Shown: positions 3,349-59,640, counted from the first letter of the stretch. The stretch is 64,000 bases of DNA from Anatilimnocola sp. NA78 (GCF_049819085.1 NZ_CP187419.1:5021518-5085517); one strand, 5' to 3'. The notes: generated by a model from the sequence alone, not told the origin. Translations and numbers: made by a program.

Positions 3349-5727
3349 CTACTTACCGCTGCGTTCCAAAATGCGGATGGTCATTTCGCCGATATCCGAC
3401 TGCCGCTCCGAAACCTTGCGAACTTCACCCTTCAGCACGTCGTCGAATTCACCTTCTGCTGGACGAGCCGACTCGAGCGATTCCGTACGGCGATTCACAC
3501 GAAGCTGAGCAGCCCGCAGCAACTTCAGTTCGGCCGAGTTAGGCAGCAAAGGCTCGTTGCCTCCACCACCACCGCCGCCGCCACCCTCGCCGCCGTCTTT
3601 TTGCTTCTGGGCTTTTTGCAACGATTCGATTAGTTCTTCGAGCGTGATCTCAATTTCTCGCTGCATCGTTTGCGTGTAACCGTCCGTGCGGAGGTTATCC
3701 GAAAGGAGCGTACCGACCGTGATCAAATCGTCTCGCAGTTGTTCGACCACATCCGGAAAGACCACGCTGGTACCATCATCGAGAATGATCTCAAGCGCCT
3801 GCTGAGCTTTGAAGGCCAGCGGGATGCGGTCGGACTGCCCGTCTTGCTTGATGATGGCCAGGCCTCGTTCATCTTCACCGAGCGACTTCAGCGTATTGCG
3901 ATCGCTGCGGGCCAGGTTGCCCATGTTGTCGACTTTCTTTTTGTCGATGACGAGCGTGCGAGCCGAAAGGTCTTTCTGCACCGCCAGCATCTCACGGAAG
4001 CGAGCCTCCAACTTGGCGAGCTTTTCGACCTGGGTCTCTTCGCGCAACTGAGCGAGCCGCTCTTCAATTTCCTTCAAGGCATCTTCGAGATCTTTGATCG
4101 CCTTGCCTTGCTTGCGCGAGGCATCGGAAGGGTCTTGCTTGCGAAGATCGCCGGACGCCTGCTCCATCGACTTTTGAGCTTGTTGAACCTTTTGCTGGCC
4201 GGGCTTTGGCTTACCACCTTCGCCACCGCCCGATTCACCGCCACCAGGCTGGCCACCGCCAGGCTGACCGCCACCTTCCCCACCCTTTTTCTCGTCCTGC
4301 TTCATCTTCTCCTGAATCTTGCCGGTTTGATTGGCAATATCGTCTTGCTTGCCGGCCATCTTCTCAAATGCTTCGGGCGGCAAGGAGGCAATGCGTTGCG
4401 ATTCCTTCTTCAGCTCTCCCAAGGCTCGCTGGAGATTTTCGAGCGCGGTCTGCTCGTCTTGCTGGGCCGCTTTCCCTTTCCCTTCTTGCAGTTTGCCTTC
4501 GGCCTGCTTTTGATTTTCGATGGCTTGCTTTAGCGGGCGCTCGCCAGCTTCCGGTGGTCGTTGTGGCTGAACCCCCGGTTGTCCGCCTCCCGATTGACCT
4601 TCACCGGGCTTACCTTCACCGGGCTTACCTTCTCCGGGCTTACCTTCTCCGGGCTTACCTTCTCCGGGCTTACCTTCTCCGGGCTTACCTTCTCCAGGCT
4701 TACCTTCTCCAGGCTTACCTTCACCGGGCTTACCTTCACCGGGCTTACCTTCTCCAGGCTTACCTTCACCGGGCTTACCTTCACCGGGCTTACCTTCACC
4801 GGGCTTACCTTCACCGGGCTTACCTTCACCGGGCTTACCTTCACCGGGCTTACCTTCACCGGGCTTACCTTCACCGGGCTTACCTTCACCGGGCTTACCT
4901 TCACCGGGCTTACCTTCACCGGGCTTACCTTCACCGGGCTTACCTTCACCGGGCTTACCTTCGGCGTTTCCCTCTGCGGCCGGTTTGTCGCCGGCTTCTT
5001 TGCCGATCTGTTCAGCAACCGATTGAGTTCCTTCGCGGACCTTGGCTTGTTCGCTGGCAACTTTGCCCAGGCCTTGGATGCCGCTTTCGCGAGCCGTTTC
5101 GGTATTTCCGATAACTCCCTTTTGCTGCTCGATCAGGGCTTCGACCGCTTTGATCTTGGCTTCGAGCGATTTCAGCGTGTCATCTTTATTGGCGACGCGA
5201 TCGGCCTCTCGCTTTTCGCCCTTTTGCTGCTGAATGACTTCTTCGATCTGCTTCTTCCATTCGCTGAGCTTTTCGAACTCCTCACGAATCTTGTCCTTGT
5301 CGTTTTTCTCATCCAGCAACAGGGCGAGCAGGTCTTTCAGATCGCCGAGAATCTTTTGTTCTTCCGCTTTGGCCGGATCGAGTTGCTGCTGATCGAGCAT
5401 GCGGGTGATGAGGGCCATCCGCCCCTTGATGCCCAAGGCCTGAGACTGCTTCAGCGCGTCGGCCAGTTTCTGGGCTCGCTCGGGTTCCGCTTTGGCGAGT
5501 GCCTGAGCCAGTTGATTGAACTTCCGTTCCAGGTCCTCCACCATTCGCTCGACGTGAGCCTGCCGGACACCAAGTGGCGTCGTTTTAAAGCTGTCTGCTT
5601 CACTCGGCTTCGTCTGCCCGCTGGCCACTCCCGCAAGCAACAGGCCCGCCGCTAACGCCGCCGTCATGCCCAAGCGACACCCTCGCGCGGTGAGGCAATT
5701 CCACATGCGGGAAGTCAAACGATCCAT
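3349..5727 (-). CDS. Secreted coiled-coil protein carrying a (GEGKP)n pentapeptide repeat array plus poly-Gly/Gly-Gln tracts
   Basis: ORF track 3349..6078. The most plausible start is MDRLTSRMW... with a following signal-like [15 protein letters not shown] (codon arithmetic gives 5727). About 24 GEGKP repeats, long charged coiled-coil segments, and a [15 protein letters not shown] tract. Confidence 0.55.
4597..4965. repeat. Intragenic 15-bp tandem repeat (gggcttaccttcacc, ~24 copies; minor ttcacc/ttctcc variants)
   Basis: Read directly in sequence lines 4561-4980. Encodes (GEGKP)n on the minus strand. Alternate-frame ORFs (HRAYL..., GLTFT..., KVSPV...) are artefacts of this repeat. Confidence 0.9.
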
Positions 5728-6017
5728 GAGCCAATCCTCCGGGGCAGCCTGCGAACCGACGCGCACGTCGCGCGGGAATTGCCAGGCAGCAACGCAACCG
5801 CAACGAGCACTGGCGTGGTAACTGTCCCTTAGTCCAGTTGGGGGGCAGTTTGGTTCAATCCACTCCAATATGACGGGCGAAACAGGCAGCCGCAAAAGCA
5901 AATGGCCAAATTTTCGCAAATTGGTCGGCGGGCGACGCTGAAGTGGGTGGGGCGAGCATGCCCAGAAGATGGTGCGAACGGCCGCGAGCGAAGCCCAGCT
6001 TTCCAATCCGTCCCTTT

Positions 6018-6158
6018 TGTCCAAAAACCCTCGCGATTGTTGGACGGGTGACTTCCTGTGGCCGCGGCTGCAACTCATTGCTGCGTCGTGCCTTGCTGTC
6101 TATTCGGCACATTTCCAAACACGCCTATCTGTCCAACAACCCCCTCAGTTTTTGGACA
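6018..6158. promoter_or_regulatory. Two copies of inverted repeat TGTCCAA-N15-TTGGAC(G/A) (6018-6046 and 6130-6158) upstream of pyrB
   Basis: Seen in sequence. Identical half-sites and identical 15-nt spacing, 112 bp apart, 350-480 bp upstream of the pyrB start, in a 600-bp non-coding leader. Confidence 0.35.
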
Positions 6159-6512: not shown

Positions 6513-7481
6513 ATGATCGCCGCTGCGGCCGATTTCGAAAAACTCCCCGCCGTTTGGAACCGCCGCCATTTGCTCGATCTGGAAAGCCTCTCCCCCGAAG
6601 AATTGACCTGCCTGCTCGATACGGCTGACCGCTTTAAAGCTGCGACGGACGATTGCCGTCGCAAAATCAGCGTGCTCACGGGGCGCACCCTGGCCAATCT
6701 GTTTTTTGAGAACTCCACCCGCACGCGCAACAGCTTTTCGCTCGCCGCGCGACGTCTGGGGGCCGATACCGTGGAGTTTTCGTCGTCCGGCAGCAGCACG
6801 GCCAAGGGCGAAACGGTGATCGACACGGCCAAGAACATCGAGGCCATGAATGTTGATGCAGTGGTGATTCGCCACCGCACGCCCGGTTCGCCCTACCTGC
6901 TTGCCAAGAATCTGGAGTGCTCGGTCATCAACGCCGGCGATGGCCCGCACGAACATCCCACGCAAGGCCTGCTCGATATTCTCACCATTCGCCAGCGCCG
7001 CGGCAGCTTAAAAGGGCTGACGGTGGCCCTGGTGGGAGATATTGCCCACAGCCGTACCGCGCGTTCGAACATCTGGGGGCTGCAAAAGCTCGGCGCGCAC
7101 GTGATTCTGTGTGGCCCCGCCACGCTGGTCTCGCGTCGCTGGGAAGAATTCGGCGTCGAGATTGCCTATCGGCTGGACGACATCGTCGATCGCTGCGACG
7201 TTCTGAACCTGCTGCGAATTCAATTCGAGCGACAGTACACGCGCCCGTTTCCTTCGGTGCGCGAGTACGCGTTGCTGTATGCCATGAACAGCGAACGGAT
7301 GCGCCGCGCCAAGTCCGACATTTTAATTATGGCTCCCGGCCCGATTAATCGCGGCGTCGAGATCACTCCCGATGTCGCCGACGGCCCGCATAGTGTGATC
7401 CTCGAACAAGTGACCAATGGCATTGCCGTCCGCATGGCAGTCCTTTGGCTCACGATGAACACGCCGCAAGCTTCGACTTAA
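6513..7481 (+). CDS. pyrB: Aspartate carbamoyltransferase catalytic subunit
   Basis: STRTR, HPTQ and LVGD motifs; ~320 aa from the internal start [11 protein letters not shown]. The ORF-track upstream extension lacks homology. Confidence 0.85.
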
Positions 7482-18962: not shown

Positions 18963-19956
18963 AGCCTCATCCACCTTACAAAGATCGCCAGCTGCCAAGA
19001 AACGCACTCGTCGAGCCACGGGCAAACAGCCCAGAATCTCCCACGGGCAAACGACCATGATAGCGCCCGCAGGCTAAAGTTCGCAATGGGCGGCTGTGGT
19101 TGCTACGGTCCCGTTGGGAGCGACTAGCTGGGTCGCGCCATTAGCTCCGGGTGGCAGGCAACCAAGCCGTGACAGTCGGTTTGACCGCACTTCGCCCAGC
19201 CGCCAGCCCCGTCTTCGCTGGCTATGCCGGCAACTGCCGCCCCCCGGCAAATGCCTCGCTCAACCTGCGGGGGGGCGAAAGTCCAAGGTGGAGACCTTGC
19301 CTGCCAATCCACGTTGCTCTGATAACCATTTTTGATAACCTTTTCACGCATTTTTCTGTGATAACTATTTGCCGTAACTCTTAGCCCATCCGCCTGTTAT
19401 GCCAACCAATCCGCAAATCATGGCGATCCGCTGATAACCAATTGTTATCTTTGCCCAAGTTGCCCCAACCGCGCCAGCAAGTGGCCGGCACCGCCGGAGA
19501 TACTCACTCGTCGTTTCGCACCAACAGGCTTCTCCAGACCCACGCTGGGGATTGCCATCAACCTCCCGTGCATCGGAGTCGCACGAACCGCCCGGCAGCC
19601 GTCCCCCTGGCTCGTCACCTGCGCACAGCGAGCGCAGGCTCTTCTCAACGAAGAACATCTACGCATCACATAGACAATATTTGCTGTGCATTAATTTACT
19701 TCATTTTCTCGACATGACAATTCATTGTCAAGTGTTTTTCGCTTGCGCCGCCAGTCAACACAGCAGACGGCACGCAGAGACACCGATCTGGCGTATCGAA
19801 TCAGCGGCTGAAGCCGGGACGCTGCCTACGGCTGCCGCAAGCTGGCTGCTGGCTTTCAACTCCCCTCTGCGTAGGCTATTCTGGGGGCACAAACGATTGC
19901 CAATGAACATTTGCTATTGAACGAACGACGGCTAATTCCCGCTGGAGCCTGCCTCA

Positions 19957-37049: not shown

Positions 37050-37145
37050 GTGTTCACAAACCGGCCCGGTTTGTAAACACGACCTGCAACATCTCTCGGC
37101 TTTGGCGCGCCTGCGTGTTCAAAAACCCCACCGGTTTGTGAACAC
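37050..37145. promoter_or_regulatory. Pair of operator-like palindromes with half-site GTGTTCACAAACCGG (37050-37080, 14/15 arms; 37115-37145, 12/15 arms), centers 65 bp apart
   Basis: Read in lines 37021-37141: gtgttcacaaaccgg-c-ccggtttgtaaacac and gtgttcaaaaacccc-a-ccggtttgtgaacac. They lie inside a 1.3-kb stretch with no credible ORF. Confidence 0.5.
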
Positions 37146-37808
37146 CCGCCTGTTCCACACGTTTCGACTTACGTCGAATCGCAACGCCTTCGTGCAGAGT
37201 CGCCGCGCTTGCATCCCGCCAAGCCGCCCGATATAATCCCGACATTATCGCAATGTCGTTAGTTATTGTCAAGTGTTTATTATGGACCTCCTTGCACAAC
37301 AACCCCTGAACAGAATCGCATTACCCTGGCCCCTTCCTCTCTAGCCTCTAGCCCCGCTCCTCGCCAGATTCAATTCCAACAGTCGAGCCAGCAGTTCGTC
37401 GTCGGTGAGCGTGACGGGCCATCCGCAATCGGCCAAGATCAACTCTGCGGGCACGACTCACCGCGATTCCGCAATTGGATTGAGGAAACCCGAAGCGTGA
37501 GCGAGGAGCGCGCTGTGGAAGTCTTGAACTGAACTCCCCGGGGGTTCGTTTACAAATCGTTCGTGCGATGTTCGAGGGCAGAAACGAATGGTCTGGCCAC
37601 GACGACACTTCCGTGCGGCGAAGAGCACTCTCCTCGCTCACGCTTCGGGTTACCTGAACAGGCGAGCGTGACGCCCGTAGTCAAGTCGAACGAATTCCGC
37701 GGCCAGCTTGGTATGGCAACGACGAACTAGCATCCACCGCTGTTGTAAGGGGATGCTGTCGAAATTCAGCCTAACGAATCCCTCGCATTGCTTGAGGCGC
37801 ACGTCGCG

Positions 37809-38456: not shown

Positions 38457-39515
38457 TTAGTCGAGCTGCAGGCTCTCAGAGCCCGAGCGGCTGCCCAGAG
38501 CGCCGAAGACGCCGTAGGGGCTCAGGCCCGTGGGGTTCTTCCCGTCGGCGTTCAGGTCGCCGCAGTTGATGTTTTGCGTGATAAACCGTACCGAGCCGTC
38601 TCCCATCGCCGCATTCACGCCGCCCGGGTGATAGCTGCTGGGCGGATACAGGCCGTTCTGAGCATCGTGGGCGTTCCAAGCACAAGAGACCGAGTTCGGC
38701 GGAGCATTCGTGGTCAGACCATGAAAGCCCATGCCGCCATCGCCCCAGCGCACACCCGCCCAAGCGCCGGTCGTCGAGATCGCCCAGGTCTTGGTGGTGG
38801 TGTTGTACTGCGAGAGGCAGCCATTGGGCGTCAAGAACCATTCGCCCCCCTGGTGGGCCGTCAGCGTCGACTTCACGCTGCTGATTCCCTTACGCCGTTC
38901 AGAGACGGCAATCGTGTTGCTCAGTCCGTCCGTCACGTCGGCCAGGCGGAAGCCCTTGTCGGTGTTCGTGCGACCAAACATGCCACGGCTTTGATTGTCG
39001 GCGTTGTTCTGGCCGATCGAGTCGCCGCTGCACAGCATGTAGTTCGTTTTGCCGATGCCACCCGTCGTGGTGAACGCGTCGGAGGGACAAGTCCAACTCT
39101 TCACCGTGTTTTGCCAGGGAGTATAAGAGCCGTTCCACGGTTCCGGACCACCAGGGGCGTAGGTCGTGGCGCCAATCACCTGTTGAGTCATGACCAAATC
39201 GTGGAGCGGCTTCTGTTCCATGAAAGGGAGTAGGGTGATGAACCCGCTCTTGCGCCCTTGATAGCTGCTGGGGTACGCGGTGAAGCGACCCTCGCGGAAC
39301 GGCAAGTAGCCATAAGTGTCGTGATGATTGTGGAGCGCGATGCCAAGTTGCTTGTGATGGTTGCTGCACTGGATGCGACGAGCCGCTTCGCGCGCGGCCT
39401 GCACCGCAGGAAGCAACAGGGCGACCAAGACGCCAATAATGGCAATGACAACCAACAGTTCGACCAGGGTGAACCCCCTGGCACGAACGCGATCTCGAAA
39501 CATGAGGGGAGTCAC
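38457..39515 (-). CDS. DUF1559 protein with prepilin-type N-terminal cleavage/methylation domain
   Basis: [54 protein letters not shown]... A family hallmark of Planctomycetota. Confidence 0.8.
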
Positions 39516-41569: not shown

Positions 41570-42373
41570 ATGAAGAATCGCACAAACCACTTGGCCACCA
41601 TGCTGGTCGCATTTCTTCTCGGCTGGTCGTCGTCGACGATCGCTGCAGATGCCGTTCCACTGCCGGCCAAGGAGAAGTTTCATCTCTTCCTGCTTGTGGG
41701 GCAGTCAAACATGGCGGGTCGCGGCAAGGTCGAAGCCGAAGACAAGCAGCCCGCGCCTCGCGTGTTGATGCTCAACAAAGAGGGCGACTGGGTCCCCGCC
41801 GTCGATCCACTTCACTTCGACAAGTCGGCCGCTGGTGTCGGCCTCGGCAAGACTTTTGGCAAGTTGATTGCCGAAGCAAATCCGGACGTCACCATCGGCC
41901 TGATTCCCTGTGCCGTCGGCGGCTCGCCCATCGACTCGTGGAAGCCGGGAGTTCTCTACAAGCCAACCAACAGCCATCCCTGGGACGATGCCATCCGTCG
42001 TGCCAAGCTGGCGCAAGAGAAGGGCGTGCTCAAGGGTATGCTCTGGCACCAAGGCGAGTCCGATTGCTCCGCCAAGGCTGCTCCTGCCTATGCTGAAAAA
42101 CTACAGTCGCTCGTGGCTGCCTTTCGTAAAGAGCTGAATGCTGACGTGCCGTTTCTCGTGGGTCAGCTTGGTCAGTTCGACGAGGTTCCTTGGGACGACA
42201 ACCGCAAGCTGGTCGACCAGGCCCATCGCGAGCTTCCCAAGCACGTCACCAACAGCGCCTTCGTTCCCTCCGACGGCCTGAAGCACAAAGGGGACAAAGT
42301 CCACTTCGACTCCGCCGGCCTGCGCGAGTTCGGCAAGCGGTACGCCGAGGCCTACCTCAAGCTTGCCAAGTAA
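41570..42373 (+). CDS. Sialate-O-acetylesterase-like (SASA/DUF303) carbohydrate esterase
   Basis: Signal peptide; GQSNMAGRG catalytic-Ser motif; 267 aa. Confidence 0.7.
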   Translation: MKNRTNHLATMLVAFLLGWSSSTIAADAVPLPAKEKFHLFLLVGQSNMAGRGKVEAEDKQPAPRVLMLNKEGDWVPAVDPLHFDKSAAGVGLGKTFGKLIAEANPDVTIGLIPCAVGGSPIDSWKPGVLYKPTNSHPWDDAIRRAKLAQEKGVLKGMLWHQGESDCSAKAAPAYAEKLQSLVAAFRKELNADVPFLVGQLGQFDEVPWDDNRKLVDQAHRELPKHVTNSAFVPSDGLKHKGDKVHFDSAGLREFGKRYAEAYLKLAK

Positions 42374-42439
42374 GCCGGCAACAAGCGGTACTCGGCGATG
42401 TCCCGGCGCTTCGACCAACTGCCGGCCCTGCCCCGCCGG

Positions 42440-42960
42440 GTTTCCCCTCCGCTGAACAGTCCTCCGCATCCCTCTCGGCATTCCATTTTTGATAACTTTT
42501 TGCGCGAAAAATCGAAACCAACGCCTCGCTCTAACCCGTTCTGCTCCAAACTATTGCGATCACAACCGACCCAAAATCACCCGTTTCCTGATAACCATTT
42601 GATAACCACTCCTGCCCCTGTTCACTCCGCAGCCTGAACAGGCCCTAAACAGGGGGTCCAGTCTTCGTGGCGGCAGACCTCCTGGTCTGCCTTCCCCCGG
42701 CCTCTCCATTCTCTTCTGACGTCGCGGCAATCCTCCCGAACTTGCCTCGCTGAACAGTCCCTGTTCAGCGCTTCTGACAGCCCGTCTTGATAACTTTTTG
42801 CGCGAAAAATCGCATCCGCTTCCTCGCCCTAACCAGTTCTGCTTCAAGCCATTGCAATCAGAACCTCCCCAAAATCACCCGTTTCCCGATAACCGTTTGA
42901 TAACCACTCCTGCCCCCTGTGCGCTCCCTAGCCTGAACAGGCCCTAAACGGGTGGCTCAG
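42440..42960. repeat. Two tandem ~298-bp non-coding repeats, each with a TGAACAG/CTGTTCA hairpin, a TTGATAACTTTTTGCGCGAAAAATCG box and a CTGATAACC-N4-GATAACC box
   Basis: Period of 298 bp measured from gctgaacag (42451 / 42749) and ttgataac (42489 / 42787). ~85% identity between copies. Confidence 0.85.
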
Positions 42961-43251
42961 ACTGCCCCTCCTCGGTTAACCGAGCCGCTTGCGGCCGTTG
43001 AACTGGCAATCAAGTCAGTCCACACTTCTCCCGCGCAACCGCGTGGGTTAACCAAATACTGGGGCAGTAGGTCCAGGAACTCCGTACCTGACGACCTCGC
43101 TGAGTTGCAGTCAGGCGCGCGACGCTGGCCTTGCCCGACTCCGCCACTCGCTCCCATAAACCTTAAAATGTCCTTGACACTAAGTCAACAAATTGTAACA
43201 ATAATTCGGTGTGACACCGTCCGGCCAAAGTGCCCGGACCGCTCAACTCCG

Positions 43252-43722
43252 CTACTGAAGATCCCGAACAGAACTTTCGAAGCAATTGAGTTCAGCCTCA
43301 ATCACATCCCAAAATGAAGTCCCGCAAATGCTGAATGCGCCTCTTCCCTCGAAGTAGAAGTAGATTGGAAGCTCAACAAGAGGAGTGCCAGTTTCAAAAA
43401 ACATAAACTGTTCCCCCTGTCTCATTGCAAATACAAAAGCATTGTTGGGAATGGGCAACTTGCCATCTTCCCAGTTTGCCACCATCTCCTTCGCACGACT
43501 TTGCAATTCGACGAGCTGTTTGACTCGAAAATCGACATCGTCCCAAAAAGCTCCCGCGCTGTGCCCCACGGCCTTCAAGAACGAGCGGTAGTCTTCCGGC
43601 AAGGCAACCCCAAGCGTGGTTTCCAGCGAAGCTATCTCTACCTCGAATGCGCCGCAAATGGGTTGATGTTTCGCCAACCCGGCGGCAACAATTCGGTCAA
43701 CTAGCTTTCTCGAAGTGAGCAT
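43252..43722 (-). CDS. SUKH-1 (SMI1/KNR4) family immunity-type protein
   Basis: LPEDYRSFLKAVGHSAGAFWDD matches the SMI1/KNR4 core. Start placed at MLTSRK. The ORF-track N-terminal extension is read-through into the upstream repeat. Confidence 0.6.
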   Translation of the reverse strand: MLTSRKLVDRIVAAGLAKHQPICGAFEVEIASLETTLGVALPEDYRSFLKAVGHSAGAFWDDVDFRVKQLVELQSRAKEMVANWEDGKLPIPNNAFVFAMRQGEQFMFFETGTPLVELPIYFYFEGRGAFSICGTSFWDVIEAELNCFESSVRDLQ

Positions 43723-43786
43723 TGAACTCTTTCCAAACGCACTTTCTCTCGCTCGATGGTGCAGCAGCTTTTCGTAACTAAGTCCC

Positions 43787-43969
43787 CGCCAGGTGCCACT
43801 GGCTCGGCCAGTGCAGATTGGCCATCGCCGGGTTGCCTCCCAGCAGAAGAGAACCTCTTGCCTTTTTGCACAGGACAACCTCTTGGCAAAATGGCAAATC
43901 TCCAGCCGCCTTCGATCCAGCTACCCATTCGAGCCGGTCATTCACTGGCGAAGCCAGTGGCACCCGGCG
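43787..43969. repeat. MITE/attC-like 183-bp palindromic element, copy A (17-bp terminal inverted repeats CGCCAGGTGCCACTGGC / GCCAGTGGCACCCGGCG)
   Basis: Three >90% identical copies (A, B, C). Each sits 6-60 bp beyond the stop of a minus-strand gene. Confidence 0.8.
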
Positions 43970-44029
43970 CACGACCACGTCTCAAATCACAGGGACCGCG
44001 ACGCCCGCCCGGTCCGCTCCAATGGCTGG

Positions 44030-44524
44030 TTATGTGCCGGCCGACTGCCGCCACACCGGTTTGGCCGCACACCGCAAATCGACGCCGCGCCACTTCAACA
44101 GAGCGTAGAGAGCGCGGTCAATTAGCAACCTATCCGCCCAGATTGCGATCGAGCCCACCAAGGTCTGACCGTCGAGCGGATCGGCATAGACGACGACCTG
44201 AATCCGCCAGTCTTTGTAAACATCTATCAACAGCGCCCGCAGCTCATCGAGGAATGCCTGTGAAAAGCTGTCGATCGACGCCTCCAGATGCCGCGTGTGA
44301 TCCGGCCACCAGTCCCAGCCGATTTCCAGATGCTTCTCCACGTAGCTGGGCTCATACAAGCGATCCGCCACCGCCACGATTCGCTTGCGAAGCTCCTCGT
44401 CCCTCCGCACGTAATCCGCCTCTGCCTGTTCGCCTTTGAACTTCGCGATCCGCGCAGAGGCTTTGAACAGATCGTCAAAGACATCATCTTTCGCGGCTAT
44501 CGTGACCTCGCGGACGTCATTCAC
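44030..44524 (-). CDS. Hypothetical cassette protein (GTG start); last ~8 codons share nucleotide homology with the 3' end of the gene at 48145
   Basis: 164-aa acidic cytoplasmic protein. Its start abuts the duplicated recombinase-5' segment. Confidence 0.45.
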   Translation of the reverse strand: MNDVREVTIAAKDDVFDDLFKASARIAKFKGEQAEADYVRRDEELRKRIVAVADRLYEPSYVEKHLEIGWDWWPDHTRHLEASIDSFSQAFLDELRALLIDVYKDWRIQVVVYADPLDGQTLVGSIAIWADRLLIDRALYALLKWRGVDLRCAAKPVWRQSAGT

Positions 44525-44654
44525 AAGCGGCTCGCCTCCGGCAAATAACTTCTTATTCTACAGAATCGCCACGAGGCTTGATTCTTGATAACAGGAGTTT
44601 TATTCTGTCGAACGGGAAATAGATGTCAATCATTTCCTTCAGAATCTTCCAAGC

Positions 44655-44801
44655 TTGCGACGGAGCGGGAGGTGTTCGGTGGCCACAGAAACGACTCCAG
44701 TCAAGCCCGGCCCGAAGCTGTTGGAGCGAATGCGTCACAAGTTACGCGCCAAGCATTTGGCATTGAGCACCGAACGGAGTTACCTGCATTGGGCCGAGCG
44801 G
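44655..44801 (+). pseudogene. 5' fragment (first ~49 codons) of an integron-integrase-like tyrosine recombinase, copy 1, interrupted by repeat element X
   Basis: KLLERMRHKLRAKHLALSTERSYLHWAER matches the IntI/Xer N-terminal SAM-like domain motif (R.[22 protein letters not shown]). The reading frame then diverges into the inserted repeat. Confidence 0.6.
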
Positions 44802-45023
44802 CGGGTGGCATGGGTTCTACCCATGTCCTCCTTGGTCTTCTGAGGTAAGGATCCTCGCCAGCCGAGGCAAAACTCAACTCGATTTCACCAGCAACTGCAG
44901 TCCTGCGTTACCCCAGAACAGTTTGAGCTCCACCAAAACTGGCACTCGACGTCACACGAGAATTGCCAGCAGACATGGGTAAAACCCATGCCACCCAGAG
45001 ATGGCGAATGACCACGCATGCCA
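44801..45023. repeat. Second repeat family (element X, ~220 bp) with terminal inverted repeats GGTGGCATGGGTTnTACCCATG / CATGGGTAAAACCCATGCCACC, copy 1
   Basis: Near-identical copy at 46276-46499. Confidence 0.75.
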
Positions 45024-45029
45024 ACACCG

Positions 45030-45212
45030 CGCCAGGTGCCACTGGCTCGGCCAGTGCAGATTGGCTCTCGCTGGGTTGCCTCCCAGCGGAAGAGAACCTC
45101 TTGCCTCTTTGCACAGGGCAACGTCTTGGCAAAATGGCAAATCTCCAGCCGCCTTCGATCCAGCTACCCATTCGAGCCGGTCAGGCACTGGCGAAGCCAG
45201 TGGCACCCGGCG
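45030..45212. repeat. MITE/attC-like 183-bp element, copy B
   Basis: Same termini as copy A. 13 bp beyond the stop of the LRR gene. Confidence 0.8.
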
Positions 45213-45225
45213 TTGTAACCCATGC

Positions 45226-45981
45226 TCATTCCGCAATCAAAAAATCATTCTCCAATTGCCAGTCGCCATTAGAAGTGTGAACCACCTCTAATTCTGGGCG
45301 CAGCTGCCGCAGGCGATCAACACACGTTGATGATACGAGGGACCCGGAGAGATCCACTCGTCTCAATCGAGTCGATGCAATCAGTTTCTCGATTATAGCA
45401 TCTGACACCTGAGTTAACGACACATCAAAGGAATGCAGGATCGGCAATCTTAAGAGACAAAGTGCGACATTATCATCCATTTTAGTCCGCGAACAGTCAA
45501 GCTCCTCTATGCCAGAAAAAATACTTACAAGTTCCCTTGCGAAATCAACGTCAACTTGTTCTCGCGAAAGTGCAATCCTTCGCACATTTCTCCAGCCTCT
45601 CATCGATTCGACAGCTGAAGGCGGCAGTTCTTTTAAAAATATATATTGAGCTGACGTAGATCTTGGCATCATCGCGTTGCACGCTCCGCCTTTGCAGTCC
45701 ACGATCACCGTCCTCAGCGAGCGCAACTCCTCAATTGCCCGAAAGTCGCTCATTGCTCCGCAGTCAATCCTGGCAAGTGCAGGATGAGCGGTGGGCAGCC
45801 CAATCCATGAGGGAAATTCAAGTGAAGATTGCTCATAGAGTTCGAGGCTGCATCCATTTTCCTTGAGCTCCCGCTCAGCTGACAGCAAGTCACGATGAAA
45901 TCTCAGTCGCTCGCTGATACAAAAGGCTACAAGAGCTGCGACAACCATCAAGAGCAATAATGCGCGGATCGAGAATGTCAT
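45226..45981 (-). CDS. Leucine-rich-repeat (RNI-like) membrane-anchored protein; low-GC, likely horizontally acquired
   Basis: Start at MTFSIRALLLLMVVAALVAFC (TM), then L-rich repeats. The DNA of 45.3-46.1 kb is visibly AT-richer than its surroundings. Confidence 0.5.
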   Translation of the reverse strand: MTFSIRALLLLMVVAALVAFCISERLRFHRDLLSAERELKENGCSLELYEQSSLEFPSWIGLPTAHPALARIDCGAMSDFRAIEELRSLRTVIVDCKGGACNAMMPRSTSAQYIFLKELPPSAVESMRGWRNVRRIALSREQVDVDFARELVSIFSGIEELDCSRTKMDDNVALCLLRLPILHSFDVSLTQVSDAIIEKLIASTRLRRVDLSGSLVSSTCVDRLRQLRPELEVVHTSNGDWQLENDFLIAE

Positions 45982-46275
45982 TTTTAGTCTACTTAACGGA
46001 GATTCGCGCTGGTGTATATTGGCCAGTGTGCTTTTTGTAGTGACAGCCCGTTTGCCGATTGCGCCTGTTTGACTCATCCTAGCTAAACCCCCAGCTATCC
46101 TGAGAATTCCATTGCGCAAATCTGTTTACTATAGTAATGTTGTCTAAGTGCCCTTGACTAATCCCCACAGGCCGCAACACTTGGTGCATAGGATCACTTG
46201 AGTAGGTTTGATCTCCGTTGGCGTCCGATATTGTGATGCTTTGTAAAATCAAGTGCGAGCCGAACCAAAATCCTG

Positions 46276-46499
46276 CGGCGGGTGGCATGGGTTGTACCCA
46301 TGTTCTTCTTGGTCTTCTGAGGTAAGGATCCTTGCCAGCCAAGGCAAAACTCAACTCGATTTCACCAGCAACTGCAGCGCGGCGTTACCTCAGAACGGTT
46401 TGAGCTCCACCAAAACTGGCACGCGACGGTCCGCGAGAGTTGCCAGCAAACATGGGTAAAACCCATGCCACCCAGAGATGGCGAATGACCACGCATGCC
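46276..46499. repeat. Element X, copy 2
   Basis: Same TIRs as copy 1. 32 bp beyond the stop of the 46532 gene. Confidence 0.75.
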
Positions 46500-46531
46500 A
46501 CCCCGCCGCCGCAGTCAGGTGCAACTGATTG

Positions 46532-47206
46532 TTATCCCGCCTTTTCAATGCGTGCTTTTACCCATTCAACAAACGTGGCCGGATCCATGTTACCCGCAAC
46601 ACGGAACTCACAAGGCTCCTCGGAGTCCCAGTGAGCTTCGGGCGTCGGAAATTCGCCTTGTCTGTCTTCGCCCCAATACATCGTCGTCTCTTCGTAGTCA
46701 TTGATCCTGAAAGCCGAACCTTTATTGCCTTCAAAGATGTACATCCCCGACACCTTGAATTCGTCGGCTATGCCCGGTTGACCAAAAGCACGAACGAGCG
46801 AGCGAGGGCTGACATGCAACATGGTCCCGAACCCATTCAAATCCTTCGTGGTGTCGGAGACAAGATCAAATGTACTGCTGTCGTCAGCGGGCGCAACGAC
46901 CGGCTCTTGTTTCTTACGAAAACCGGGTTTGCCCCTGAAAAACTCATGTTTGCTCACCCAGACGATCTGGCCGAAAACATCGTACTCTTCACCGTCAAGT
47001 TGAAAAGAGCCAATGGTGTTGATTCGACCTTCCGTTTGACTGCTGAACGTGAGCTTCAGATTCGTTGCATCTGCGGGCATGTTGTTCACAAACGCCGTGG
47101 AAGCGAACTGCATGAAGTCGGCAAAACTTGGCGGAGTAGTTTTGCGCCAACATGACTTGTAGGATTCGACGTCAATCAACGCTTCAAGTTGTTCTTTGAC
47201 GGTCAT
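46532..47206 (-). CDS. Hypothetical cassette protein (224 aa, acidic)
   Basis: ATG start 12 nt from the second copy of the recombinase-5' segment. No recognisable domain. Confidence 0.45.
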   Translation of the reverse strand: MTVKEQLEALIDVESYKSCWRKTTPPSFADFMQFASTAFVNNMPADATNLKLTFSSQTEGRINTIGSFQLDGEEYDVFGQIVWVSKHEFFRGKPGFRKKQEPVVAPADDSSTFDLVSDTTKDLNGFGTMLHVSPRSLVRAFGQPGIADEFKVSGMYIFEGNKGSAFRINDYEETTMYWGEDRQGEFPTPEAHWDSEEPCEFRVAGNMDPATFVEWVKARIEKAG

Positions 47207-47328
47207 GTCTTTAGCGGGATAACTTCTTATTCTACAGAATCGCCACGAGGCTTGATTCTTGATAACAGGAGTTTTATTCTGTCGAACGGGAAATAGAAGT
47301 CAATCATTTCCTTCAGAATCTTCCAAGC

Positions 47329-47484
47329 TTGCGACGGAGCGGGAGGTGTTCGGTGGCTACAGAAACGACTCCAGTCAAGCCCGGCCCGAAGCTCTTGGAG
47401 CGAATGCGTGACAAGTTGCGTGCCAAGCATTTGGCATTGAGCACCGAACGGAGTTACCTGCATTGGGCCGAGCGGTTCATACGC
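47329..47484 (+). pseudogene. 5' fragment of integron-integrase-like tyrosine recombinase, copy 2, truncated exactly at the left end of MITE-like copy C
   Basis: ...LRAKHLALSTERSYLHWAERFIR then the frame enters cgccaggtgccactggc. 258 bp (47219-47477) is ~97% identical to 44545-44800. Confidence 0.6.
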
Positions 47485-47664
47485 CAGGTGCCACTGGCTC
47501 GGCCAGTGCAGATTGGCCATCGCCGGGTTGCCTCCCAGCAGAAGTGAACCTCTTGCCTTTTTGCACAGGGCAACATCTTGGCAAAATGGCAAATCTCCAG
47601 CCGCCTTCGATCCCACTACCCATTCGAGCCGGTCAGGCACTGGCGAAGCCAGTGGCAACCGGCG
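47482..47664. repeat. MITE/attC-like 183-bp element, copy C
   Basis: Same termini as copies A and B. Ends 30 bp beyond the stop of the gene at 47695. Confidence 0.8.
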
Positions 47665-47694
47665 CCCCTGTCGATAGGGAAGGCCATAGAGAGG

Positions 47695-48060
47695 TTAGGC
47701 CGACTTCCTTTGCAACCACTCCTGATACTGTCTCCAATCATCGTCAATCGCCGCTTGCTGCACGGTTTCTGAAACATCGCCAAATTCAATCTCGCGCATG
47801 TATCTCGGATATTCCGCCTCCGCAAGGACATCTCGGTAGTCTTGGATCGCGGTCTGCGTTTCGTCCAGAAGTCGAGCAAGATCACCGTTTACGAGCTTGA
47901 GGATGGCGAGTCGCACGCGCGGGTTGGGGCGATTCCAATCCTGCTTTCCGAACTCTTCGAGAATCGAAAGCGCCAGTGCAGCCTGAGCATCGCCAAAGTC
48001 GCGGAGCGCGATCCTCTTTACGTCTTCGTAAGTCACATCTGGGATGGGTTGTTCCGCCAT
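47695..48060 (-). CDS. Hypothetical small cassette protein (121 aa)
   Basis: Acidic, helical, no known domain. Immunity-protein-like context. Confidence 0.4.
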   Translation of the reverse strand: MAEQPIPDVTYEDVKRIALRDFGDAQAALALSILEEFGKQDWNRPNPRVRLAILKLVNGDLARLLDETQTAIQDYRDVLAEAEYPRYMREIEFGDVSETVQQAAIDDDWRQYQEWLQRKSA

Positions 48061-48144
48061 AAGCGTGTCGGCCTAACGACCAAGTTCACCTGCTGCGGCG
48101 GCGGTGAGACGTTGAACTCTGAAAAAGCCGTAATGCCGCCGCAG

Positions 48145-48669
48145 TCAGGTGCAACGGCTGGTTATGGCCGGCCGGTTGCCGTCGAACTCCACATGGAAGC
48201 CTACCGGTAGAAGCCAATACGGAGCGAATCGCGCGTCATGAATCGTCAGCTCGTACAGCGACTGAAAATGCAAGTTCGCGGGTTCATTCACATCCAAGGG
48301 ATCGTCGGCGACTCCAACGAACCAACCCGATTTGTTGCCTTCAAGCTGATCGAGTCGCTCCATGAATGCACGCGGCGACCCCGGCATGTAAGACCTGCTG
48401 ATGAGCGCCGCATGCCACAGCGCACAGCGCTCCGGCTCAACCCGCTGTTTGGCCAACACAGCCGACTGTTCCGCGTCGATACGTTCCACTGGCCCGAAAT
48501 CTCGAGTGAACGACGCCATGGCCAGGAAATCAAGTGTCTCCAAGTCCAATTGGCCGTTCTCGACGATGGCCTGAAAGATGAACCAGCCGTACTCGACTGA
48601 CTCGCCGTGCTTAACGGTGCGCGTGGAGAGGAAGTCGAGGACATTCGATCGTAGAGCACTTGAGGCCAT
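48145..48669 (-). CDS. Hypothetical cassette protein (174 aa)
   Basis: Its 3' end shares the ggctggttatgGccggccgGTtgcc segment with the 3' end of the 44030 gene. A hairpin, cacctgctgcggcggcgg ... ccgccgcagtcaggtg, lies 3' of its stop. Confidence 0.4.
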   Translation of the reverse strand: MASSALRSNVLDFLSTRTVKHGESVEYGWFIFQAIVENGQLDLETLDFLAMASFTRDFGPVERIDAEQSAVLAKQRVEPERCALWHAALISRSYMPGSPRAFMERLDQLEGNKSGWFVGVADDPLDVNEPANLHFQSLYELTIHDARFAPYWLLPVGFHVEFDGNRPAITSRCT

Positions 48670-48922
48670 AACTACTTATAATCTTGCGCGGCGGTCATGT
48701 TAACCTAAGCCGCGATCAAGGGATCGAATCCGATCTATCTGAAGTAGGTTAAGTGGGTTACGCTCCGAATGTCAACTGATAAGCAAACCAGCAATTCTTG
48801 CGCAGCGTGAGTCCAACTAAAAGGCTGCTGCTGAGGTTGGGGAAAAGTTCCGGACCGGTTGCTTACGGGGTGCGAGAACAACCGGATTGAGAGCGTGAGG
48901 AAAATGACCGAGCAAATTGGGG

Positions 48923-49405
48923 CTAAGCGATCGATTGGTCAGCAAGTGCAACGGCGGGCCGTGGGGCCAAGACGAGCCGCATGAACACTTTGTCCAGGCC
49001 CGGCTGATACCCGTCGACGATCACCCGAAACGCCTCGAAGTCGAACCGGGCGAAAAACGGAGCGGTGTGCTGACTCGTGTCGATCAAAACGCACCACGCA
49101 TGGGTAATCTGCCGAATTTGCTCGAGCCGCCACTGGAGCAGGCTCGCCCCTACTCCCCGTCGGTGCCAGTTCGCGCGGACCATGCCCCATTCCAGGTAAC
49201 CCACCCCATAGTCATCGACACGAAACCCACCGCACCCGCGGACCTCCCCCGCGATCTCAGCGACGAAGAAAGGCTGATCCCGCCGCCGCAGGTAGGCCGC
49301 GAAGAGATCTCGCTCAGGCGCGGTGAAATACTTCGGCCGGTTGCTGTCGAAGATTTCCAAGCAGGCCGACTCGTCGTCTTGTCGGTACTCACGAATGTCT
49401 CCCAA
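48923..49405 (-). CDS. GNAT-family N-acetyltransferase
   Basis: RGVGASLLQWRL acetyl-CoA binding motif; 160 aa. Confidence 0.7.
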   Translation of the reverse strand: MGDIREYRQDDESACLEIFDSNRPKYFTAPERDLFAAYLRRRDQPFFVAEIAGEVRGCGGFRVDDYGVGYLEWGMVRANWHRRGVGASLLQWRLEQIRQITHAWCVLIDTSQHTAPFFARFDFEAFRVIVDGYQPGLDKVFMRLVLAPRPAVALADQSIA

Positions 49406-49547
49406 GAGCGACCTCCGCTGCTGAACGGATCAATGTTCAATGGCCAACACCGCGCCGACAAACTCCGACTTTACCAAAACGCTCAACGCCAAGTGCCGCT
49501 GGCTCGGCTGGCGAAGCCACTGGCATAGCGCAAGATCTGTTCGCGAC

Positions 49548-50843
49548 CTACTTCCCCGCGACGTCGTAACAGAAGATCAACTCCTGATCGCGCAAAAACA
49601 GTTTGCTGTTGGCAACGACCGGCGGCGTCCAGATTTTGCCGCTCGGTTTGCGCAGCTTCGATTGCTCGGGAATGCGGAACGTCGCGACGATGTTAGGAGC
49701 CGTCGGATTGGCCTCGACGACCGCCAGGGTGCCATCACCTTCGGCGTACGTAAAAAGTTGGCCATCGGCATAAGTGACGGAACCAGCCCGCAGCTTCGCG
49801 CGCTCGGTCCAGGCGATTTCGCCCGATTCGAGTGACTGGCACAGCCAGCCGCGGCCACCAGCGCCATAGATGTGTTCGCCGACGAGCACCACATTGCCGT
49901 GATGATTGGCCAGGTTGCGGTTCGTGTACACTTCCTCCGCAGCGAACTTGCCGTCGCTCGGTTTGATCCGCAGCAACGTACAACCATGCGCGCCACCGAC
50001 GGTCACATAGACAAGCGAGCCGCGCACGATGGGACTATTGACGACTTCGGTCCCGTACTTGGTTTCCCACATCCACAACAGCGAGCCATCTTGAGCACTC
50101 ACCCCAAACACGCCCTGATTCGTGAGCACCACATATTGTCGCTGGCCGTTCACTTCGGCAAGCATCGGCGACGCATACGCTGCCTGCTGAGTGACTTCTT
50201 TGCTGCGCCATAGCACTTCGCCGGTCTTTTTATTCAAAGCAGCGACGGTTCCTTGTGGTCCGCCAGGCAGACAGACCAGTTGATCCCCGTCGACGAGCGG
50301 CGACCAGGTGAATCCCCAGCCCAGCTTCTTGGGGCCACCACCAATGGGATTCACTTCGGCGGCCAGATCGGCGGGGAGATTCTTTTTCCAAACCACTTTG
50401 CCATCTGCTTTGCCGACACAGACCAGGTCGCCATTGCCACCCAGCGCGAAGATCAAGTCGCCATCGACCGTGGGTGTGGCACTGGGCCCCGCGCTCCAGT
50501 TGTTCCCTTTGAAGTCGAACAGCGGACCAATTTCGGTGGCCCACGCTTCTCTCACGTTGCCATCGACAAAGCTGCTGGTATCGAGCGCAATCAGGTACTC
50601 TTTGCCGTCACGGGCACCCATCGTGTAGAGCCTGTCGCCAACGATCGCTGGTCCCGAGTAGCCAATGCCCGCATTGCGGTAAGTCCACAGGAGCTTGGGG
50701 CCTTCCTTCGGCCAGTCTTTCAACAGTCCTTTTTCTGCCGAGACGTCGTCACGGTTCGGCCCGCGATACTGCGGCCAATCGTCGGCAACCGCCACCAGTG
50801 GGAGCGCGCAGCAAAGGGCGAGAGTGAGCGAAGAGGCGTTCAT
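49548..50843 (-). CDS. PQQ-repeat beta-propeller protein (BamB-like fold), secreted
   Basis: Start at MNASSLTLALCCALPLVAVADDWPQYRG. Repeated PQQ-type blades. Confidence 0.7.
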   Translation of the reverse strand: MNASSLTLALCCALPLVAVADDWPQYRGPNRDDVSAEKGLLKDWPKEGPKLLWTYRNAGIGYSGPAIVGDRLYTMGARDGKEYLIALDTSSFVDGNVREAWATEIGPLFDFKGNNWSAGPSATPTVDGDLIFALGGNGDLVCVGKADGKVVWKKNLPADLAAEVNPIGGGPKKLGWGFTWSPLVDGDQLVCLPGGPQGTVAALNKKTGEVLWRSKEVTQQAAYASPMLAEVNGQRQYVVLTNQGVFGVSAQDGSLLWMWETKYGTEVVNSPIVRGSLVYVTVGGAHGCTLLRIKPSDGKFAAEEVYTNRNLANHHGNVVLVGEHIYGAGGRGWLCQSLESGEIAWTERAKLRAGSVTYADGQLFTYAEGDGTLAVVEANPTAPNIVATFRIPEQSKLRKPSGKIWTPPVVANSKLFLRDQELIFCYDVAGK

Positions 50844-51146
50844 GCGTACCTCGGGGGAAGTCGTGTGGGAGGGAGGAACAACGACGGCGGGTTTGACGAG
50901 CAGTAGACTACACCTCGCCTCCAGCAATTGCCATCGTTACGTTTCGCTTGATTTGCCGCCCCCTGATTTGACGCCCGCAACGGGGGTGGGTATCGTGACA
51001 GGTTCCTACCGGGTGGGTTGTGCTGGGCGATCGGCACGTAGCGAAGCAAGGGCGAAAGTTGCTTCCACCACCTTGCCAGTTGAATGATGGCTGGTTGTCG
51101 TTTGTCGACGGTCCTGCTGACCGCTGTTTCACTTTGGAGTTTCGTT

Positions 51147-58608: not shown

Positions 58609-59640
58609 ATGCCCTCCTCTCTCCGCCAACGGGGCTTCACGCTCGTTGAGCTGCTCGTCGTGATTGCCATCATCGGTGTCTTGGTGGCCCTGCTCTTGCC
58701 GGCGGTACAGGCTGCACGCGAAGCGGCACGGCGAACTCAGTGCATCAATCACCAGAAGCAATTGGTGCTGGCCACGCACAACTTTCACGACACGCTCCGG
58801 CGTTTGCCGCCGGGCGGGGCCAGCGACCAGCCTCCGTTTGGCATCGATGCGGCCACCGGCAATCGCTGGGGCAGCAGCTGGTTCGTCTACATTTTGCCAT
58901 ACATCGAACAGCAGCCACTGTTTGACAAGTGGCAATTCACCGGCCAGTCGGGGGCGTTCAATACCAACAACAACACCGCCGCGACCGGCGTGATGATCAA
59001 GACGTTCTTCTGCCCTTCGTCACCGCTGCAAAAAGCTGCGCCCAATCGGCAACTTGGCTCTACCTTTGCTTCTTACGTCGGCATCAGCGGAGCTGTGAAC
59101 GGCTTGATTCCCGGTTATACCGAAGACCGCATCAACACTTGGCCCTGCGGCGGCACCATGAGCGGCGGCGGTGTGCTTGTCCCCAATGGCCAGTTCAATC
59201 TTGGTTCGATCACCGACGGCACCAGCAGCACGATGGCCATCAGTGAGCAGGGAAACTTCTTGATCGACAACACGGGCAAGAAGCAGGAATGGCGAGCCTC
59301 GCAGATCTGGGGCTGGTATCTGGGCGTGAAGTCGGTGGGTGTTCCGCCGAATTTTGATAACGGCGGCACGGACAATCGCCAACCCAACATGGCGACGATT
59401 CGCTACTCCATAAACTATGCCCCAGCCGGTGGCTGGGCGAATGATGTCCCGGGGCTTGGCGTCGGCGGCGCGAATGGCACGAACTGCGTGGGAGCTAACA
59501 TTCCACTGAACTCGACGCATACCAACGGCGTCGTGGCTGCCTTCAGCGACGGCTCGGTCCGTTTTCTGACGCAATCGACTTCCCTCGCCGTGCTGGCTCA
59601 GTACGCGACTCGCGACGACGGCCTGCCCGTTCCTGAGTAG
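58609..59640 (+). CDS. DUF1559 protein with prepilin-type N-terminal cleavage/methylation domain (second copy in window)
   Basis: [52 protein letters not shown]... Confidence 0.8.
   Translation: MPSSLRQRGFTLVELLVVIAIIGVLVALLLPAVQAAREAARRTQCINHQKQLVLATHNFHDTLRRLPPGGASDQPPFGIDAATGNRWGSSWFVYILPYIEQQPLFDKWQFTGQSGAFNTNNNTAATGVMIKTFFCPSSPLQKAAPNRQLGSTFASYVGISGAVNGLIPGYTEDRINTWPCGGTMSGGGVLVPNGQFNLGSITDGTSSTMAISEQGNFLIDNTGKKQEWRASQIWGWYLGVKSVGVPPNFDNGGTDNRQPNMATIRYSINYAPAGGWANDVPGLGVGGANGTNCVGANIPLNSTHTNGVVAAFSDGSVRFLTQSTSLAVLAQYATRDDGLPVPE

Follow-up and report, generated by a model that had tools for sequence, protein, structure and literature searches.

A probable decayed chromosomal integron colonised by REPINs in Anatilimnocola sp. 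NA78

A 64,000-nt stretch of the genome of Anatilimnocola sp. NA78 (GCF_049819085.1 NZ_CP187419.1:5021518-5085517), referred to here as the window, carries an island of small minus-strand genes interleaved with long imperfect palindromes and with truncated copies of an integron-integrase gene (intI). The GC content of the island is 0.47-0.55, against ~0.58-0.62 in the flanks, an anomaly already described when the sequence was first inspected for unusual features (the original prediction), and the flanks code for a SASA esterase (41570-42373), a pyrroloquinoline quinone (PQQ) propeller protein (49548-50927) and sugar-metabolism proteins. Two near-identical platform remnants, each made up of the 5′ end of intI, its upstream region and attI, face promoterless cassettes on the minus strand. 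The island is most probably a decayed chromosomal integron that has been colonised by REPINs, which are doublets of repetitive extragenic palindromic (REP) sequences mobilised by a REP-associated tyrosine transposase (RAYT).

Taken in cassette order, the island begins with the gene at 48145-48669, which is followed by an intact attC, and the gene at 47695-48060, which is followed by an R'' box, a copy of a 184-nt palindromic element (E184c) and an antisense intI fragment (b) that leads to its attI. The cassette at 46532-47206 comes next, followed by an attC with a copy of a second element (X_b) inside it, then by the gene at 45226-46119, by E184b and X_a, and by antisense intI fragment a with its attI. 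The gene at 44030-44524, a half-attC, E184a and a SUKH gene complete the order. The three E184 copies are direct repeats of one another, as are the two X copies, so that recombination among copies would yield deletions and duplications and not inversions. None of the E184, X and integrase-fragment families recurs in the other ~58 kb of the window. Rfam gave no match in the whole window at gathering thresholds or in 42300-49600 at E ≤ 1, and a tRNA search found none.

All six island genes are on the minus strand. The gene at 48145-48669 encodes an Imm33-like protein (Pfam PF24719, E 8e-7); it ends inside the intact attC, and a GTTATGG box overlaps its start codon. The gene at 47695-48060 (121 aa, no family match) starts 10 nt past the R' box GTTAGGC. 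The first cassettes at attI b and attI a are the genes at 46532-47206 (224 aa, NA78x_004016) and 44030-44524 (164 aa, no family match), respectively. The low-GC gene at 45226-46119, which encodes an N-terminal hydrophobic segment, had been called a leucine-rich-repeat gene; this assignment was not borne out, there being no Pfam match at E ≤ 0.01 and a weak NCBIfam match to STM4015 (E 0.065). The SUKH/SMI1-KNR4 assignment of the gene at 43252-43725 held (Pfam PF14568 and PF09346; Pfam E 6e-9), and its likely start is an internal ATG of the open reading frame (ORF) 43252-43878. A GNAT gene identified by its Pfam match lies at 48923-49405. No convincing attC hairpin was seen between it and 48145-48669, where only the GTTATGG box was found, or after the SUKH gene, and the GNAT gene is therefore not claimed as a cassette.

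The SUKH and Imm33-like domains of two of these genes are what one would expect of a polymorphic-toxin immunity island unrelated to integrons, in which orphan immunity genes were gathered by recombination beside a toxin locus. It is very unlikely that the locus arose in this way: no toxin, Rhs or secretion gene was found near the island, its neighbours are metabolic genes, and the hallmarks of an integron (intI fragments, an attI junction and attC) are present. The immunity-type genes are better explained as cassette cargo, and it is as cargo that this part of the original prediction survives.

The integron hallmarks begin with a duplicated unit of 257 nt, consisting of the intI 5′ end plus 134 nt upstream, which is present at 44545-44801 and 47219-47475 with 6 mismatches and had been correctly recognised as a pair of integrase 5′ fragments. 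Platform remnant a (44545-44801, plus strand) contains the attI crossover ATAAC at 44545-44549 (G/TTAT on the minus strand, the stroke marking the crossover point), an upstream region at 44550-44678 and 41 codons of intI from a GTG start (44679-44801). Platform remnant b (47219-47481, plus strand) contains the attI crossover at 47219-47223 and 43 codons of intI (47353-47481; P0001). The upstream identity of the two copies ends at ATAAC, that is, at G/TTAT on the cassette strand. At the other end, fragment a overlaps X_a, which ends it, by 4 nt (GCGG), and fragment b extends 6 nt further (TTCATA) before it is ended by E184c; the fragments are thus cut at a repeat boundary as had been stated, to within 0-6 nt.

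The identity of the truncated gene is supported by profile searches. The sole NCBIfam matches of the 44-residue fragment are two integron-integrase models, TIGR02249 and NF011946 (fragment residues 1-44 to profile positions 1-46, E 1.3e-5), and the fragment also matches Pfam PF13495. A HMMER scan of 1.84 billion representatives returned 639 matches at E ≤ 0.001, and TIGR02249 was the best NCBIfam match in all ten longer relatives scanned, five of which exceed its 265-bit cutoff. The surviving part of intI is limited to 41-43 N-terminal codons; the IntI-specific domain falls in the missing part, and there is no full-length integrase in the window. In many of the nearest full-length integron integrases (P0132, P0135, P0142, P0166, P0187 and others) the fragment matches residues ~105-215 in two stretches, so that these enzymes apparently have an additional copy of the SAM-like domain at the N terminus.

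A third intI 5′ fragment (P0002, NA78x_005501) is encoded in the same genome ~1,500 genes from the window by locus tag. Its identity to the window fragment is 94%, and after codon 33 it reads into an X-type hairpin (AGGMGST = GCGGGTGGCATGGGTTCTACC); all three known intI fragments therefore end at a REP hairpin. A query of a 90%-clustered protein database with the 44-aa fragment by 5-mer sharing returned only the NA78 fragments themselves. The search for intI relatives in the genome that had been proposed earlier accordingly yielded this third 5′ fragment and no full-length copy among the 90%-clustered database matches.

Sigma-70-like sites face the cassettes in both attI copies (44629->44602 and 47303->47276); these are consensus matches whose regional frequency is not above chance. 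The heptamer TGATAAC occurs 14 times in the window against 2.6 expected, in every case on the plus strand and often within TGATAACCATTT(TT)GATAACC. Its positions (19320-19438, 42490-42904, 44586 and 47260) form clusters in two intergenic regions with one further occurrence per attI copy, and a role in protein binding or as part of a promoter is possible.

The junctions between attI and the cassettes can be located by comparison with other organisms. The gene at 46532-47206 has seven metagenomic homologues with 68-76% identity. One of them (L145) stands in a run of small same-strand genes with canonical attC sites between them (ACCTAAC...GTTATGT and GCATAAC...GTTATGA). In L145 and L146 the homologue directly follows a canonical attC whose R' box is G/TTATGA, and in L145 and L147 a canonical attC is also present 3′ of the homologue. 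In the DNA alignment between NA78 and L145 the upstream sequences are unrelated and homology begins exactly at G/TTAT, 13-14 nt before the start codon, a boundary that is common to L146 and L148 also. The stop codon lies within (C/G)ATAAC in NA78, L146, L147 and L148 but not in L145. The onset of homology at G/TTAT, together with the end of platform identity at the same motif, identifies 47219-47223 and 44545-44549 as attI-cassette junctions. Another homologue context (L144) was considered as an integron and shows no integron features.

The intact canonical attC (48071-48167, minus strand) is a 97-nt imperfect palindrome between the genes at 48145-48669 and 47695-48060. Its R'' box is CCATAAC and its R' box, GTTAGGC, is a perfect GTTRRRY; the L boxes GTTGCACCTGACTGCGGCGGC and GCCGCCGCAGCAGGTGAAC are complementary, and bulged bases are found on the R''/L'' arm, as expected of a folded bottom strand. 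The site folds at -29.7 kcal/mol (z -4.5). A crude scan of the 64 kb for AAC...GTT palindromes with complementary inner arms returned two sites (48071-48167 and 1585-1640), against 0-2 in shuffled sequences.

Parts of further attC sites are found at the ends of other cassettes, all on the minus strand. The R''-L'' half-attC of the cassette at 46532-47206 (46507-46539) is 90% identical over 31 nt to the corresponding half of the intact site. An R''-L''-like half-site at 43996-44035, reading ACATAAC CAGCC ATTGGAGC..., lies at the stop of 44030-44524 and is 72% identical to the intact half; no L'/R' half matching it was recovered. As read from the sequence, an R'' box GCCTAAC at 47694-47700 holds the stop of 47695-48060, after which the rest of the attC is missing and E184c follows. 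The stop codons of three genes are thus embedded in GCCTAAC, GGATAAC and ACATAAC. When the X_b core is removed in silico, the arrangement R'' GGATAAC-AATCA-L'' GTTGCACCTGACTGCGGCGGC ... GCCGCAG ... R' GTTCGGC (46259-46265) is restored, and the sequence around X_b is accordingly read as a degenerate attC with X in its putative loop region. E184a and E184c were considered as simple insertions into attC sites and rejected, as excision of either restores no attC. The integron-derived origin put forward in the original prediction is upheld by the exclusive integron-integrase matches, the G/TTAT junction, the intact attC and the half-sites. Its statement that canonical boxes are lacking applies to the termini of E184 and X and fails for the island, where the attC at 48071-48167 and the boxes GCCTAAC, GGATAAC and ACATAAC had been overlooked.

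The longest palindromes of the island do not belong to the attC sites. E184, described earlier as a 183-bp element in three copies, was found as 184 nt with 94-96% identity between copies, sharp termini (CGCC...GGCG) and unrelated flanks on both sides; no target-site duplication was found at any of the three copies. E184a (43787-43970) consists of two inverted REP hairpins at 43793-43814 and 43942-43963 around a 127-nt interior and lies 59 nt past the stop of 44030-44524. E184b (45030-45213) abuts the X_a unit directly and lies 12 nt past the stop of 45226-46119. On one side of E184c (47482-47665) integrase fragment b comes to an end; the other side is 29 nt past the stop of 47695-48060. Each E184 end is a hairpin, GTGC-CACTGGC-TNN-GCCAGTG-C, with a 7-bp stem and a variable loop, and the inverted-doublet form is present in all three copies. 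Between the PQQ-propeller and GNAT genes, a 39-nt palindrome (49487-49525) joins the outermost ~19-21 nt of the two E184 ends directly to each other and may be a collapsed or excised REPIN.

The terminal hairpin of E184a, GTGCCACTGGCTCGGCCAGTGC, is a REP sequence of Planctomycetota. A search with the pattern GTGCCACTGGCTYSGCCAGTGC, limited to one genome per species, matched at least 120 stretches, and among the matches listed 80 of 80 are in Planctomycetota, including Planctomycetaceae, Pirellulales, Isosphaeraceae, Thermoguttaceae, Fuerstiella, Blastopirellula and Ca. Kuenenia; several genomes among these have at least five contigs each with the hairpin. The examined loci and the window together contain 209 perfect-stem hairpins of the E184 type. 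In other genomes most of them stand in inverted pairs, of which there are 76, 61 of them spaced 39-58 nt start to start and the rest 72-189 nt; stems are conserved, whereas loops and spacers vary and interiors are unrelated, and the sequence that E184 has in common with other genomes is only the 25-40 nt around the hairpin. Frames of ≥600 nt cover 48% of the E184-type hairpins against 87% of random positions, which indicates avoidance of long open frames. Hairpins of this type are also found in tandem on one strand, repeated every 30 nt (L119 5193-5305; also L011, L016 and L055). When the full-text literature was searched for the hairpin sequence, all that matched were unrelated primers, and the REP surveys PMC3733652 and PMC6006769 mention Planctomycetes without a matching sequence.

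An association with a transposase is found at two of the hairpin loci. At L095, inverted hairpins at 6750 (plus) and 7535 (minus) bracket a gene at 6873-7451, and at L001 hairpins at 488 (plus) and 1152 (minus) bracket a gene of the same kind. The protein of ~190 aa matches Pfam PF01797 (Y1_Tnp) and scores 83.2 bits against the NCBIfam equivalog REP_Tyr_transpos, for which the cutoff is 80. It has 3266 relatives at E ≤ 1e-10, the best-matching of which are 62-77% identical, and some of these already carry the name REP-associated tyrosine transposase. A REPIN, as set out in PMC3337134 and PMC3116915, comprises two inverted REPs and a spacer and is mobilised by a RAYT. Given this definition and the hairpins that flank a RAYT, E184 is predicted to be a long-spacer REPIN of a REP/RAYT system that spans the phylum. 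That the E184 copies end identically, lie between unrelated flanks and lack target duplications is consistent with a REPIN/RAYT mechanism.

The elements can be compared with the REPINs of Pseudomonas and enterobacteria, which likewise consist of two short G+C-rich inverted stem-loops around a spacer (PMC3116915, PMC3337134). Further likenesses are that the elements are non-coding, mainly extragenic and multi-copy, that stem-loops of the E184 type flank a Y1/HUH transposase of the REP_Tyr_transpos family, and that target duplication is lacking. The X hairpin has a foot of the classical GT[AG]G type (GTGG); the E184 foot, GTGC, differs from GT[AG]G by one base and in this departs from classical REPs. 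The spacers here are 127-145 nt long, against 20-30 nt in most doublets of the E184 hairpin family. Unlike classical REPs, which are usually genus- or species-specific, the E184 hairpin is near-invariant across Pirellulales, Planctomycetaceae, Isosphaeraceae, Thermoguttaceae and Ca. Kuenenia. The E184-type and X-type hairpins are written GTGCCACTGGC and GGTGGCATGGGT, respectively.

Terminal inverted repeats, a length of 184-194 nt, a non-coding interior and the presence of several copies would also be compatible with miniature inverted-repeat transposable elements (MITEs) derived from a DDE-type insertion sequence. For E184 and X such an origin is highly improbable: target-site duplication is absent at all three E184 copies, the terminal repeats are themselves stem-loops with varying loops, and E184-type hairpins flank a Y1 transposase that scores above the REP_Tyr_transpos cutoff. 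Neither kind of autonomous partner was found for X.

Element X, given earlier as 220 bp, is present in the reported two copies as units of ~232 nt that are 91% identical. The X_a core (44803-44996) carries the terminal hairpins GGTGG-CATGGGT-TCT-ACCCATG within a duplicated unit at 44798-~45029, and the X_b core (46280-46473; unit 46275-~46506) lies inside the decayed attC of the cassette 46532-47206. The hairpins (GTGG-CATGGGT-TNT-ACCCATG) stand in inverted orientation at a distance of 170 nt and have the foot, stem and triloop arrangement of E184, with a fully compensated stem. Beyond the core the copies have in common an extra flank of ~5 + 33-37 nt, which suggests segmental duplication rather than independent insertion. 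A metagenomic homologue (L127/L138) matches X at 80% identity throughout the core of 194-196 nt, GGGTGGCATGGG...CCCATGCCACCC, and no further, its flanks being different, and this restriction to the core argues that X has a discrete mobile core. In the metagenome scan for X hairpins most matches are coding GGGMG motifs and only L127/L138 is informative; no RAYT was found beside an X-type hairpin in the 23 metagenome loci with the pattern. X is best described as REPIN-like, by architecture only. One further metagenomic contig (Ga0308417_1091966; L141 700-1101) carries a CRISPR array with the repeat GTCGCCTTCCTCCCGGAAGGCGTGGATTGAAAC and an X-type hairpin, GGTGGCATGGGTTGTACCCATG, in one spacer, which could be a coincidence or a spacer against an element with this REP.

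The nature of E184 and X bears directly on the suggestion that the palindromes are an unrecognised type of recombination site, a new long attC-like class used by an integron integrase or another recombinase to mobilise the genes upstream. The elements are imperfect palindromes with strong folds, lie 12-59 nt past four stops and are confined to the cassette region within the window. The palindrome reported after each of the six genes is found after four (47695-48060, 46532-47206, 45226-46119 and 44030-44524); after 48145-48669 a canonical attC stands in its place, and the SUKH gene has neither. E184c folds as a single long hairpin (-45.8 kcal/mol, z -4.5). The ends read CGCC...GGCG and not AAC...GTT. 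What is conserved is a hairpin of 22 nt, which flanks a RAYT and is dispersed in Planctomycetota without integrases or attC arrays; a tyrosine recombinase was found at only one of 120 hairpin loci, and arrays of attC-like sites at none of them, and in these loci the hairpin shows no link to integrases or attC. Within the island, canonical attC boxes stand beside E184 and X or are interrupted by them, and in other organisms the homologous cassette has ordinary attC sites. A role of E184 and X as such sites is therefore extremely improbable, and this part of the original prediction gives way to their reading as REP doublets.

The history of a decayed integron colonised by REPINs might be as follows. 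A RAYT working in trans on hairpins of single-stranded DNA would have copied REPINs into the array, with insertions in or beside attC sites and within the first part of intI. Their entry, together with deletion or unequal exchange at or between copies, would have cut intI short, broken up several attC sites and multiplied the platform. Since the platform identity stops at the crossover point, an integrase supplied in trans would have inserted a different cassette at each attI copy. With intI truncated and attC sites destroyed, the array would now be frozen. The palindromes would have no part in cassette recombination and would serve at most as transcript-end hairpins for the genes that precede them. 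The idea that just one unequal crossover generated either platform unit from its counterpart was considered and rejected, as the order of the pieces does not fit.

Both parts of this explanation are of kinds that are already known, namely a decayed sedentary integron and REPINs of a REP/RAYT system. Elements that insert into attC sites include the IS1111-attC group of insertion sequences and the group IIC-attC introns; these are autonomous (encoding a transposase or a reverse transcriptase) and attC-specific, and can immobilise cassettes. The position of X_b in the attC of 46532-47206 resembles theirs in that a mobile element lies in or beside an attC hairpin, but E184 and X are non-autonomous hairpin doublets with no attC specificity evident in other genomes. 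Sedentary chromosomal integrons and their decayed forms (In0 and CALIN, the cluster of attC sites lacking an integron integrase; PMC4889954) share with the island an intI divergent from small same-strand promoterless genes, the G/TT attI junction, attC sites with R''/L''/L'/R' boxes and bulged bases, stop codons inside R'', and attC halves that resemble each other within an array. The island differs from them in that intI persists only as 41-43-codon 5′ fragments, two here and a third elsewhere, that the platforms are interleaved within the array instead of standing at one end, and that most attC sites are broken.

Several points weigh against this account. One attC is intact, and the remaining sites were read by eye and with a crude script and not with the IntegronFinder model. 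IntegronFinder calls a CALIN when at least two attC sites are detected; here one site passes the crude scan and the others are broken by REPINs. The link between RAYT and hairpin is seen in other genomes (L095 and L001), and no RAYT lies within the 64-kb NA78 window. X is without a link to any RAYT, and its copies share flanking sequence, so that mobility of X within NA78 is unsupported. Every REP hairpin of the 64 kb lies within 4 kb of the island, a clustering that is unexplained for dispersed REPINs.

A non-random interaction between the REPIN/RAYT system and the integron would account for three separately truncated intI 5′ fragments in one genome that each end at a REP hairpin. In such an interaction attI-intI' modules, or attI-intI'-cassette modules, would be REP-flanked composite passengers moved by the RAYT, or REPINs would prefer attC, attI or the intI 5′ end when these are folded as single-stranded DNA. 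One E184 and one X flank each module in the window, the third fragment, P0002, also runs into an X-type hairpin, and all REP hairpins of the window are within the island. The modules are not flanked by elements of like kind and order, however, module identity ends at the attI crossover and not at a REP, no hairpin link to attC-like sites was seen across the examined Planctomycetota loci, and the basis is one genome. Such an interaction is accordingly considered unlikely; if true, it would be an undescribed route for silencing, duplicating and scattering integrons.

Other repeats were noted in the window. Between the esterase gene and the SUKH gene, the region 42400-43000 contains two tandem units of ~298 nt that are ~84% identical, with a 15-nt perfect palindrome (TTTTTGCGCGAAAAA) and hairpins (CTGAACAG/CTGTTCAG), without an ORF and without an Rfam match. 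In an intergenic stretch, 37050-37145 and 37480-37658 hold two more inverted-repeat pairs of 32-35 nt with 84-89% complementarity, such as GTGTTCACAAACCGG...CCGGTTTGTGAACAC, which could be another palindromic repeat family. A tandem array with a 15-nt period and ~35 units at 4484-5037, within a 909-aa ORF (3349-6078, minus strand), would encode a five-residue protein repeat. The arms of a 163-nt inverted repeat (39316-39478 and 58631-58793; 74% complementary, 19 kb apart) are probably oppositely oriented paralogous coding segments.

Long palindromes that follow small genes in a cassette-like array are thus not automatically recombination sites, and a tempting false lead is removed. REPINs can mask or break genuine attC sites, with the consequence that integron finders would under-call arrays of this kind. 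The near-invariance of a 22-nt REP hairpin across the phylum Planctomycetota bears on how long such elements can persist. Should the truncation of intI at REP hairpins prove to be beyond coincidence, it would point to an interaction of two systems that are both based on single-stranded DNA.

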